In this document: positions 42,887 to 51,004 of the stretch, piece after piece | How positions within the stretch are numbered: the first letter of the stretch is position 1 | How the letters are laid out: the number at the start of each line of letters is the position of its first letter | Assembly (NCBI GenBank): GCA_963677925.2 | Contig: CAXXYH010000004.1 | Location: 1,216,001-1,280,000, forward strand | Source of the DNA: Spirochaetia bacterium | GTDB taxonomy: Bacteria > Spirochaetota > Spirochaetia > UBA9216 | Direction: 5' to 3' | DNA length: 64,000 nucleotides | Translations under genes and position numbers: made by a program | Notes under the pieces: model-generated | What the model was told of the DNA's origin: nothing | Databases searched by the model: none | What the model saw: only the letters and a program-made list of their open reading frames with translations

Positions 42887-42927
42887 GTACCTCCGCGCTG
42901 ATAATGATGAGTTGTTGTCGCGTTCAT

Positions 42928-44603: not shown

Positions 44604-44821
44604 CAATGTGAAAGGAACGTGACTAAGTCTGAAAACTTCGGTTTAAAACTTAGCTTAGAGTTTGTTTACAAACTTTAACGCTTTAATAGTCATGGAAAAA
44701 CAGCCTGTTAGGCAAAAAACAACGCAGTGAAGTTCAGTTTACTGAACTTCCGAGATGCAGCTTGCTGCATCTCCGCTCTCTTTCTTCCTTTTTTATACTT
44801 TAAAGTACTTTGTACTTTAAT

Positions 44822-44895
<74 letters not shown>

Positions 44896-45084
44896 ATTTA
44901 AGTAGGCTATTGCTTCTATAAGTAATAGCTGATTTTTTCGGGCCTTTAAGTAGGCAAGATACTGAAAACTATGTGTTTTTATTGTTCTTTAAAATAGATA
45001 AAGACTGTTGAAAGATTACAGTTTTGAAAACTTATCCATATAACAGGGAGTGGATAAGTATAGGGAAGGGTTAAGAGGTAATAT

Positions 45085-48071
<2,987 letters not shown>

Positions 48072-48216
48072 ATATTTCCCCTTAATCAATTCCCAGAGAA
48101 TTGAGCCAATAGGCTGCATGGACCAAGAAGTCCTGTGAATAGCAACCTATCGTGCCCAAAACTCAATCCCTGTTCGTTCTGCAATAGCAGAATGTAAGAA
48201 TAATTTTGAATAATTA

Positions 48217-48308
<92 letters not shown>

Positions 48309-48326
<18 letters not shown>

Positions 48327-48752
48327 TTTTTTTTATTAATTTCAAAAAGCAGTATTACAATTCTTAACTTTTAAAATAATCACTCCCGCTAACGCGTGAA
48401 CTGATGTAACTTTTTTCACGTAAAATCTATCTAAACTAATAATTTGCGGGACTACGTTAGGCCCCATAGGCTCACCCTGAAAGTAGCACAGCAGGCTTAG
48501 CCTGATGTATAGTAGGTCATTGCCAGGCTTTTTTTTATTAATTTAGACCAACGGTCTAAATTAATAAAATATGAGACCTAAGAAGAGCTTGAAGTTTGGT
48601 AATACCAAACTTCAGAGAAAGTTCTGAATATTAAGCGGTTATATAAACCAATAGAAGTCTGGAAGATAACCAGAGATAAAGGGCAGCAAAGCCACTTTCT
48701 CCGGTCATTGGAGAAGCCTTAGGCATCTATGCCAGGCTTTTTTTATTAATTT
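48309..48752 (+). repeat. Three spaced copies of the 5S rRNA 3' end plus T-tract (5S-anchored repeat array)
   Basis: 34-nt AGTAGGTCATTGCCAGGCTTTTTTTTATTAATTT identical at 48309-48342 and 48511-48544; TGCCAGGCTTTTTTTATTAATTT at 48730-48752. Confidence 0.9.
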
Positions 48753-48820
48753 GCTAATCATTTAAAATATACTTTCGTTATCAGCATACTGCACTTATAA
48801 TTTATTTGTGAGGTAAAGCA

Positions 48821-51004
48821 ATGCGTAAGAATGTAATCTTCGCATTCAAAAAGTTTTCGTCAAACAAAAATATTTTTATAAGTATAATATCTGTTTTTAT
48901 CATAACTCTTTTCTTTCCAAACAGTATTTTTTCTGAAGATCAATTTAGAAAAATTACAGTAGTCTATCCATATAATATGGCTACTGATTGGGACATGGCT
49001 TTTAATCAGAAATTTTACAATTCGATTATTATAAAAAGAGGAACCAATACCAGAATATCTTTTTTGAATATCAAATACAGTCTTGAGGATAATATAAATA
49101 GAAGAGTTAACCTTGTGCCGCAGATTGACTTAATTAAAGAAGAATACCAGCCTGATTTAATAGTTGCCATGTTTTCATCTGTACAGAATTTGTTTTTAGA
49201 TTTGGAAGATGATTCTTTAAATCAGATTGACAAGATATTTGTCCCAGTGGTTCCGCAAATGTTTGAGGAGCTTAATAAGATACCAAATTCGTTTATCATA
49301 CAAAGTTCATCCGGTTATGCTATAGAAAATAATATATTAAGTTTTAAAAATTTGCTTCCACAAAGAAGGCATTTAATTGTTGTGAGCGGTGCGGGTGAGA
49401 ACGACAGCCCATACCTTGATATGTTTAAAGCAAAAGTTAAAAAATTGTCAATGGATGAATATTATTCAATAGATTATATAGTAGGGCAGACTGAAGAAGA
49501 CCTGATTAATTCAATAAAAGAATTAAGTTCTAAGAACGGTATCTTGTATTTTCTCCCATACAATATGGACACTGAAGATAATGTTTATGAATTATCTTAT
49601 CTATTTCCAATAATTTATGAAAATGCTGATATGCCTGTATTCTCATTTTTTAATGATACAATCCCTTTGGGAGCTGTCGGCGGTATTATGACAAGCCCGG
49701 AGGCTTACGGTAGTTTTTCCGCCGAAGTCGCATTAAAAATATTAAGCGAAGGAAAGATTGATAATACGGAAGAGCAGACCGCATATGTGCATCAATATAA
49801 CTGGCTTGAATTGAATAAATGGGGTATTGATGAAGCCAAATTGCCAGATGATTGTGAAATACTTTATAAGCAGTATACCTTCTTTCAGGAATATAAATCT
49901 CGAATTATTTTTGTAGTTATTCTTGTTTTTCTGGAAACATGTCTTATTGTTGCCTTGTCATTTAATTTGGTTAAAAGAAAGCGTGCAGAAATTGAACTGA
50001 GAAAAAACGAAGGCTTTTTTGAAAGAACCGAAAAAATAGCCAAGCTGGCGGGATGGGAAATTGATAATATATCTAAACAATTGATACTGACAAAAGAAGC
50101 GCGGCATCTTCTAGGGGCACCAGTTGATAAACCAGTAGTAATAAAGTCAATATTGAAGAATATAGAAAGATCATATCTGCATGAGTTTATTCAGGCAGTT
50201 CATAGCGTAAATAAAAATAATTCTATCGATTGTGTAATTAGATATAAAACCTACTCCGAAAATTATTCCTGGTTAAGAATTGCAGGAGGCCCTGTCAGAA
50301 TCAACAGCAGGTTGACAAGAATGTCAGGAATTATTCAGAATATCACGGTTGAAAAAGAAAACGAACTAAGGCTTACGAAGATATTAAACGAAAAAGAAAT
50401 TCTTTTAAAAGAGGTTCATCACCGTGTAAAAAACAATCTGGCCATCATTTTATCAATAATTGAACTGCAGAAAGCCGCTTTTGAAGAACCCGTAATAAAT
50501 GAAATTTTACAAAAAACTCAGGGGCGTGTTCGAACAATTGCTTTGATATTTGAACTATTATTCCTGGATAATGAGGTAGAAGAAGTCAATCTTAAGAATT
50601 TTGTAGATATGCTTGTAAATTCAATTATCTCAGAAAATTGGGATAAGGGCCCCGGACTTAAAATTGAACTTAATGTTAGTGAAATTTCAATGAAACTTGA
50701 GATGTTATTTCCTATTGGTCTGATTATAAATGAGCTTGTAGATAATGCTCTACGGCATGGCCTGTATTCAGTCGATATTCCGGAATTGACTGTTATAGCT
50801 GATATTATAGATAAGAGAGAGAATCAGCTTTATATAATAATCCGCGATAATGGGCGCGGGTTTAAGAATATCGAAAATGAATCAGGGAAAAGTAAAACTG
50901 TAGGTCTTTTTTTGGTAGAAACACTTGTTGAGCAGCTTGATGGAATTTTTAAAAAAATTACAGAGGAAAACACAGTATTTGAAATTAGAATACCGTTAAA
51001 ATGA
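48821..51004 (+). CDS. Sensor histidine kinase (extracellular ABC-SBP-like sensor, PAS-like, HisKA_2)
   Basis: N-terminal TM, GAVGG...NWLELNKWGI sensor motif, TM, LLKEVHHRVKNNL, GLIINELVDNALRHG, DNGRG. Confidence 0.87.
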   Translation: MRKNVIFAFKKFSSNKNIFISIISVFIITLFFPNSIFSEDQFRKITVVYPYNMATDWDMAFNQKFYNSIIIKRGTNTRISFLNIKYSLEDNINRRVNLVPQIDLIKEEYQPDLIVAMFSSVQNLFLDLEDDSLNQIDKIFVPVVPQMFEELNKIPNSFIIQSSSGYAIENNILSFKNLLPQRRHLIVVSGAGENDSPYLDMFKAKVKKLSMDEYYSIDYIVGQTEEDLINSIKELSSKNGILYFLPYNMDTEDNVYELSYLFPIIYENADMPVFSFFNDTIPLGAVGGIMTSPEAYGSFSAEVALKILSEGKIDNTEEQTAYVHQYNWLELNKWGIDEAKLPDDCEILYKQYTFFQEYKSRIIFVVILVFLETCLIVALSFNLVKRKRAEIELRKNEGFFERTEKIAKLAGWEIDNISKQLILTKEARHLLGAPVDKPVVIKSILKNIERSYLHEFIQAVHSVNKNNSIDCVIRYKTYSENYSWLRIAGGPVRINSRLTRMSGIIQNITVEKENELRLTKILNEKEILLKEVHHRVKNNLAIILSIIELQKAAFEEPVINEILQKTQGRVRTIALIFELLFLDNEVEEVNLKNFVDMLVNSIISENWDKGPGLKIELNVSEISMKLEMLFPIGLIINELVDNALRHGLYSVDIPELTVIADIIDKRENQLYIIIRDNGRGFKNIENESGKSKTVGLFLVETLVEQLDGIFKKITEENTVFEIRIPLK

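Follow-up and report, generated by a model that had tools for sequence, protein, structure and literature searches.

Conserved structured modules ending in copies of the 5S rRNA 3' end form arrays behind the rrn operons of some Spirochaetia

Two unrelated units with a repeated terminus lie behind the 5S rRNA gene

The window, a 64,000-nt stretch of contig CAXXYH010000004.1 from a Spirochaetia bacterium, contains an rrn operon in the order 16S-tRNA-Ile-23S-5S. The 3' terminus of its 5S gene, GCCAGGC, directly adjoins a run of eight T residues, and GCCAGGC with a T-tract behind it occurs three times, starting at 48320, 48522 and 48731, with periods of 202 and 209 nt. We refer to the two intervals as units U1 and U2 (Table 1). 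The 34-nt sequence AGTAGGTCATTGCCAGGC-T8-ATTAATTT at the 5S end (48309–48342) is 100% identical to that at 48511–48544; a third copy (48720–48753) has 62% identity in the same 34-nt register, where the part truly in common is the 23 nt formed by TGCCAGGC, T7 and ATTAATTT (48730–48752). An earlier note on this DNA had described the three copies, both periods and the 34-nt identity, all of which we could reproduce. It had also stated that the two interiors cannot be aligned, and the best local alignment between them is indeed a 13-nt AT-rich word that was equalled by 59 of 1000 shuffles. The stems that it listed are present as well: a 17-bp fold-back (48533–48549 with 48553–48569) and a 12-bp hairpin (48590–48601 with 48603–48614), both exact, in U2, and CGTGAA/TTCACG (48395–48400, 48415–48420) and CAGGC-TTA-GCCTG (48492–48504) in U1. 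The proposed antisense relation of GACCTA to TAGGTC fared less well, being 6 nt long and at chance level by itself.

Table 1. Positions of the 5S rRNA gene, the trailer units and their parts, and the related spacer module
Feature	Position	Strand	Evidence or remark
Two-hairpin module (P1-like, CGAG, P2-like)	44729–44773, tail to 44796	+	R1, 33.2 bits, E 2e-4
5S rRNA gene	48218–48326	+	RF00001, 97.5 bits, model positions 1–120
Junction module 1: last 18 nt of 5S + T8 + ATTAATTT	48309–48342	+	direct-repeat family D1, reference copy
Unit U1, 202 nt; its last 18 nt, AGTAGGTCATTGCCAGGC, equal the 5S 3' end	48327–48528	+	100% identical copies in the other two rrn trailers
CTCCCGCTAACGC, perfect 13-nt antisense to 5S 48296–48308	48383–48395	+	inverted repeat I3
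Junction module 2, same sequence as module 1	48511–48544	+	D1, 100% identity
Unit U2, 209 nt, long 3' variant	48529–48737	+	covariance model R1, 192.9 bits
P0, perfect 17-bp fold-back; 5' arm U-tract + AUUAAUUU, 3' arm ending AUAAAA	48533–48569	+	inverted repeat I1
GACCTAAGAAG, the version here of the (A)GUCUAAGA motif conserved 3' of P0	48575–48585	+	CTAA invariant in 20 aligned junctions
P1 hairpin TGAAGTTTGGTA-A-TACCAAACTTCA	48590–48614	+	inverted repeat I7; double changes in 7 of 10 pairs, 10 distinct U2 copies
P2 domain; helix GAGAAAGT (48615–48622) with ACTTTCTC (48694–48701), variable interior with AGTCTGGAAGATAACCAGAGA	48615–48701	+	double changes in 7 of 8 pairs
Long-variant terminal hairpin, 3' strand GCCAGGC, then T7 + ATTAATTT (junction module 3)	48709–48752	+	fold; third copy of D1

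The units differ in how much of the 5S end they carry. U1 matches it at 18 of 18 nt, with the identity extending 16 nt further, while the window U2 has only the 8 nt TGCCAGGC in common with it, not 18; other U2 copies end in GGTCAT(A)TGCCAGGC, a 14 of 15 match. In the predicted fold, the U2 end (48709–48744) forms a hairpin followed by U7, with GAGAAGCCUU..GGCA pairing with UGCC..AGGCUUUU, and the U1 end has just GCCUG/CAGGC around a 19-nt loop. A simple consensus scan called no intrinsic terminators on the + strand of the array. Six-frame translation gave no gene-like ORF of at least 20 aa in the array, just ORFs of 31–41 aa on the - strand, and Rfam matches in the window, in 48050–48900 (E up to 10) and in 19 related loci were confined to rRNA and tRNA, bar chance-level hits. 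The first gene past the array is a 727-aa ORF (48821–51004, + strand) that starts 84 nt beyond the last U-tract and whose C-terminal part looks by eye like a sensor histidine kinase.

Unit number and order differ between the three rrn operons of the genome

The genome (5.04 Mb in four contigs) has three rrn operons, and all three carry unit arrays behind 5S. GCCAGGC followed by at least six T residues was found at 12 genomic sites, of which 11 belong to the three 5S trailers and just one does not. The arrays comprise two, three and five units, in the orders 5S-U1-U2 (the window), 5S-U2-U1-U2 and 5S-U2-U1-U2-U2-U1', and in each operon the first unit begins one base past the 5S 3' end. In U1', a diverged U1, the 3' end is longer and of a different kind; the short U1 form resembles a fusion of U1' with the 5S end, made at AGTAGGT. 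Identity among the six U2 copies ranges from 99% to about 70%. Neither BLAST nor a covariance model of U2 (R1), all six matches of which lie in the trailers, found U1 or U2 copies beyond the rrn trailers of this genome.

We compared these copy numbers with unitig depths in run X1, possibly the source sample, which makes the check independent of the assembler but not of the sample. Depths were 9.46 for the single-copy flank, 25.8 for U1, 18.4 for the 5' part of U2 and 27 for its middle; the ratios to the flank of 2.7, 1.9 and 2.9 fit three, two and three genomic copies, and the contigs say nothing on unit order. The earlier note would have given up its reading had long reads shown the array to be a chimera, or had the units been invariant and untranscribed in all relatives; we found that relatives, like the operons of this genome, differ in how many units they have and in what order.

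Contigs from three RNA runs were 23S and 5S of other organisms; they leave the units uncovered and do not inform on their transcription. Separately, a 126-nt contig from the oligo-dT RNA library X15 matches 48242–48340 perfectly, that is the 3' part of 5S and 14 nt of trailer, and then departs from it; it may be a read-through transcript of a relative, or DNA in the library.

U2 is a conserved structured module that opens with a fold-back of the U-tract

U2-type units are about 190–210 nt long. The predicted fold of the window copy is far more stable than expected (MFE -71.6 kcal/mol, z -7.24), with none of 200 shuffles equally stable. Every U2-type unit opens with a hairpin of 15–22 bp, P0, whose 5' arm is the U-tract that follows GCCAGGC. 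Since a MAFFT alignment of the junctions lost the register of P0, it was folded junction by junction. An equivalent was found at 22 of 22 distinct junctions, 17 of which have at least 12 bp and at least three U residues of the tract in the stem, and for 21 of the 22 no shuffle was as stable. The apical sequence is different in each distinct junction examined. The earlier note had considered fold-back synthesis templated by the 3' end; a conserved hairpin with its own apex at each distinct junction argues against this.

Downstream of P0 and the conserved motif come the P1 hairpin and the P2 domain, the latter closed by a long-range helix that takes forms such as GAGAAAGU/ACUUUCUC, GAGAUAGC/GCUAUCUC and GAGAUAAC/GUUAUCUC in different copies. 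Over 10 distinct U2 copies from four genomes and three genera, 97% of cells were paired and 15 of 21 pairs had double changes; these counts come from an alignment fitted to the model structure, which favours that structure, and the same pairs were first visible in an unfitted MAFFT alignment. None of 500 shuffles matched this result, and sliding the partner strand reduced pairing to 35–53%.

U1 retains a 13-nt antisense copy of 5S

As a single sequence, U1 is not unusually stable relative to shuffles (z -0.58), and it has no P0. It contains the 13-nt antisense copy of 5S pointed out in the earlier note, which is an exact match and was equalled in score by 2 of 1000 shuffles. Diverged relatives of U1 occur in three other genomes, one of the same genus (G001) and two of another (G006 and G010), and the motif is kept in their U1-type units, including two units of G006; the exception is the fourth copy in G000, the genome of the window, where the motif has diverged. 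It is conserved in two genera, and its flanks drift. The form CUCCCGCUAACGC, retained by U1 in G000, G001, G006 and G010, lies beside the 5S-like sequence GCGGGAC, and internal pairing between them is possible. When duplex energies between 5S and whole units were computed, 60 of 500 shuffles were as stable for U1 and 19 of 500 for U2, values that say little, given the long inputs and the implausibly gapped structures.

Related arrays occur in several genera and two families

In G001, one U2 lies right behind each of three 5S genes, with U1' behind one of them. Within the other genus, U2 was found behind both 5S genes seen in G007, G008 has one U2, likewise next to 5S, and U1' follows 5S directly in G010. 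On the reverse strand of locus L013 of G007, a second U2 loses its match to the family about 130 bases in and unrelated sequence follows, possibly an insertion. The trailer of G006 (locus L035, reverse strand, first 800 bases) contains 5S, two U1-type units that both end in GAGTAGGTCATCGCCAGGC, a composite unit in which a P1-like hairpin is mixed with the CCCGCTAACGC motif, and a minimal U2 consisting of P1 and P2 only. This composite trailer indicates that the modules recombine with each other. G058, from a different family, has two U2 units, and here too U2 adjoins 5S.

A third genus of the window's family provides the natural empty state for comparison. All three 5S genes of G005 (loci L060, L062 and L063) end in GCCAGAT or GCCGGAT; the trailers behind them are unrelated and have hairpin terminators of the usual kind. 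Since these 5S genes have other trailers, the units must be dispensable.

Model R1 matched five of 11 genomes of the family, the order-level set being the same 11 genomes, and four of 151 sampled genomes of the class. A looser junction pattern was found in six of 401 sampled class genomes, one of which (G236) looks like chance, and the reversed control gave one hit. A stricter pattern, applied to one genome per species, returned 14 loci, 13 of them from spirochaetal MAGs; the remaining locus, from a Bacilli MAG, has neither 5S nor fold-back and was set aside as chance. The strict pattern also gave five metagenome loci, whose upstream sequence reads by eye as the end of a 5S gene. Units of GC-richer MAGs are shorter and consist of P0, AGUCUAAGA, a long hairpin, a small hairpin and GUCGCCAGGC-UUU; at least three such units stand in one locus (L059). 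Unit ends track the 5S end of their own lineage, be it CATTGCC, CGTTGCC or CGTCGCC. We conclude that the units are real, conserved and previously unannotated RNA modules of the rrn trailers of some Spirochaetia. A limited search of the literature on bacterial 5S trailers, spirochaetal ones included, found no paper on the latter.

A model for processing and array turnover

Taken together, the array probably, though by no means certainly, represents an rrn 3' trailer built of modular, structured non-coding RNA units, a spirochaetal and non-homologous counterpart of the tRNA- and rRNA-linked repeats of E. coli that would be processed as follows. Helix I of 5S and the U8 tract would act as a leaky terminator. 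In read-through RNA, P0 would arise as a long, perfect duplex of the U-tract and the A-tract downstream of it, beginning a few nucleotides past the 5S end. RNase III cuts perfect duplexes of 17–22 bp, and its cleavage of P0, a step proposed from sequence only, would free 5S for 3' trimming, with exonucleases then trimming back to GCCAGGC. The same steps at every unit end would release RNAs of about 190–200 nt from the P0 cuts, with 3' ends made likewise. By analogy with RrA, RrB and RrF of E. coli, such RNAs could serve as reporters of the rate of rRNA transcription.

We propose RNase III for the P0 step because the genome appears to have no RNase E/G or RNase M5: neither was found in this 99.6%-complete genome, in which genes for RNase III and RNase Y are present. 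The enterobacterial route would therefore be unavailable. RNase M5 and RNase E had been considered as readers of the repeated end and were rejected, as neither is found in the genome. Termination at unit ends is doubtful, since internal unit ends of the GC-richer relatives have only three to four U residues and the scan called no + strand site.

Homologous recombination and gene conversion, acting between operons as well as at the near-identical 34-nt junctions, would lengthen, shorten and rearrange the arrays. The near-identical junctions and the 100% identical U1 copies fit such exchange. Vertical inheritance of the units, with reshuffling at the junctions, fits the sequence comparisons better than repeated insertion.

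Comparison with known stable-RNA trailers

The rrnB terminators T1 and T2 are tandem terminators of rrn operons. As in this arrangement, the spirochaete arrays place several U-tract-bearing modules behind 5S; unlike the terminators, the units are far longer, have compensated helices unrelated to termination, and in many cases lack a hairpin immediately before the U-tract. The functional 3'ETS-leuZ RNA is one short trailer that RNase E cuts from the 3' external transcribed spacer of its operon. It resembles the spirochaete units as a trailer RNA of a stable-RNA operon and differs in having neither a repeated 3' end nor an array. Dual rrn terminators and the 3'ETS-leuZ sRNA of the glyW-cysT-leuZ operon both appear in Stenum et al. 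2021 (PMC8144298).

The closest design is that of the tRNA/rRNA-linked repeats (TLRs) covered in the same paper, which lie in tRNA or rRNA operons at one to five per locus and whose last 18–19 bp are the 3' end of the gene immediately upstream (PMC8144298). Those of rRNA operons in E. coli, rrA, rrB and rrF, are located between terminators T1 and T2 of rrnA, rrnB and rrnD, behind 5S, and repeat its last 18 bp 150 bp downstream. Their read-through transcripts are processed to RrA, RrB and RrF RNAs of 173 and 115 nt, with ends located 3 nt past the 5S end and 3 nt past the repeat, and the authors suggested that RNase E recognises the repeated end (PMC8144298). The function of TLRs is described there as a puzzle since 1978, with modest effects for rrA, rrB and rrF. 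The 178-bp repeats of tyrT-tyrV and the RtT RNA go back to Egan and Landy 1978 and Rudd 1999, as cited in PMC8144298.

The spirochaete units share with rrA, rrB and rrF the position next to 5S in an rrn operon, the repeated 5S 3' end and a similar RNA size (173 nt in E. coli); conservation within one order, conserved structure and presence in some operons only also count as likenesses. They differ in having no sequence or Rfam similarity to them, in forming arrays of up to five units from two unrelated families where E. coli has one unit per operon, and in the U-tract/A-tract fold-back that opens every U2. A further difference is that transcription has been demonstrated for the E. coli TLRs, the spirochaete units being known from sequence alone. 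With RtT and the tyrT repeats they have in common tandem units behind a stable-RNA gene, ending in its 3' 18–19 nt, at one to five per locus; here the anchor is 5S, not a tRNA, unit structure is different, and there is no match to RF00391. The likeness to tyrT/RtT drawn in the earlier note thus stands in position, repeated 3' end and number of units, and its statement that the design was not known for 5S does not, given rrA, rrB and rrF (PMC8144298). The design is already known for 5S, and the spirochaete units are set apart by their two families, longer arrays and P0; their relation to the E. coli TLRs is one of design, not of family. We also considered a CsrA-titrating sRNA and rejected it: csrA is present in the genome, and 10 U2 copies contain 21 GGA motifs versus 26.3 expected, so that CsrA-binding motifs are not enriched in U2, a further difference from rrA, rrB and rrF.

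Alternative origins of the units

The units could instead be tandem 5S duplicates in decay, each a spacer plus an internally deleted pseudo-5S, that serve at most as spare terminators and whose RNA is functionless. The interior of U2 (AGTCTGGAAGATAACCAGAGA) resembles the 5S 5' end AGTCTGG-TGATAA-TAGAGA, by eye a longer resemblance between U2 and 5S is seen in G058, and U1 contains 5S-like pieces (GCGGGAC, AGTAGGT and the antisense 13-mer). Decay would also suit unit ends that match each lineage's own 5S end, and the lack of units in G005. However, RF00001 finds nothing in the units at E values up to 10, and the sense similarity to 5S is non-significant, being equalled by 82 of 1000 shuffles for U2 and 262 of 1000 for U1. 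Decay leaves unexplained both the persistence of distinct U2 subtypes at 69–72% identity within one genome and the fact that P1, P2 and P0 show compensatory changes from genus to genus and between families. We therefore regard it as unlikely, if the most serious of the alternatives.

It is less likely still that the units are independent small-RNA genes with promoters of their own that lie behind rrn operons by happenstance. A short distance (a few bases) upstream of the conserved AGUCUAAGA, the P0 A-tract has the sequence TAAAAT or TATAAA, and a simple scan found TTTAGA-17-TAAAAT at 48542–48570. Yet the four promoter-like sites compare with a shuffle mean of 3.3, pairing with the U-tract accounts for ATAAAA, and the -35 region would fall on the P0 apex, which is variable.

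Had small mobile elements of a MITE-like or integrating type targeted the 5S 3' end specifically, one would expect unit numbers and orders that differ between operons, U1 copies with 100% identity at three loci, and 5S genes without units in some relatives. Against such elements, the genome has zero copies away from rrn trailers, we noticed neither terminal inverted repeats nor, apart from the junction, a target duplication, and the array has no gene-like ORF of at least 20 aa in six frames. Inter-operon identity is expected from rrn gene conversion, and U2 is found at the same position in several genera as old, diverged copies. The repeated site-specific insertion proposed in the earlier note likewise fits poorly with units that are confined to rrn trailers and with a U2 that abuts 5S in several genera and two families in diverged and compensated form, and we consider a mobile origin very improbable. 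A chimera of different rrn 3' flanks is scarcely credible, for although rrn operons and repeats of 200 bp assemble with difficulty and the arrangement is known from contigs, the X1 unitig depths agree with the assembled copy numbers and comparable arrays occur in the separately assembled G006, G007 and G058, in other MAGs and in metagenome contigs.

Possible roles and implications

The spirochaete units are a second, unrelated and deeply diverged set with the TLR layout, bringing covariation, paralogous subtypes and a host without RNase E, and they give comparative leverage on whether the repeated end serves processing, termination or recombination. They suggest that combining a structured RNA with a copy of the gene's 3' end, as in TLRs, is a recurrent solution rather than a peculiarity of E. 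coli. They also explain the repeat-rich, hard-to-assemble rrn 3' flanks of these MAGs, and define a new candidate RNA family for annotation.

More speculatively, and with a low probability in our estimate, the units might be functional RNAs made in step with rRNA that have roles in ribosome biogenesis, through the anti-5S motif of U1 and a P1-AGAG-P2 signal. The 13-mer of U1 is perfectly antisense to the helix IV/V strand of 5S and, by pairing with 5S while nascent or once free, might work as a chaperone in folding or assembly or else as a decoy. If this functional reading were true, rRNA 3'-end mimicry for the maturation of co-transcribed RNAs would have arisen independently in enterobacteria and spirochaetes, with different nucleases.

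A related module lies in the 16S-tRNA-Ile spacer

Within the same operon, R1 also matched a two-hairpin module between 16S and tRNA-Ile. Its sequence reads GAAGTTCAGT-TT-ACTGAACTTC, C, GAGATGCAGC-TT-GCTGCATCTC, followed by a pyrimidine run and T6. The same module, with compensated stems such as GAAATATAGC/GCTATATTTC, is found in the G001 and G007 spacers. It resembles a minimal U2 core that is reused elsewhere in the operon and, if the functional reading were true, the presence of P1-AGAG-P2 in the 16S-tRNA-Ile spacer as well as in the 5S trailer would mark an undescribed rrn processing or protein-binding signal of Spirochaetia. The 16S-23S spacer of the window contains tRNA-Ile alone (44821–44896), without tRNA-Ala. 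By their sequence, TTGTTCTTTAAAA before 23S (44983–44997) and CATTGTTCTAAAACAG in the leader near 42925 resemble boxA antitermination sites.
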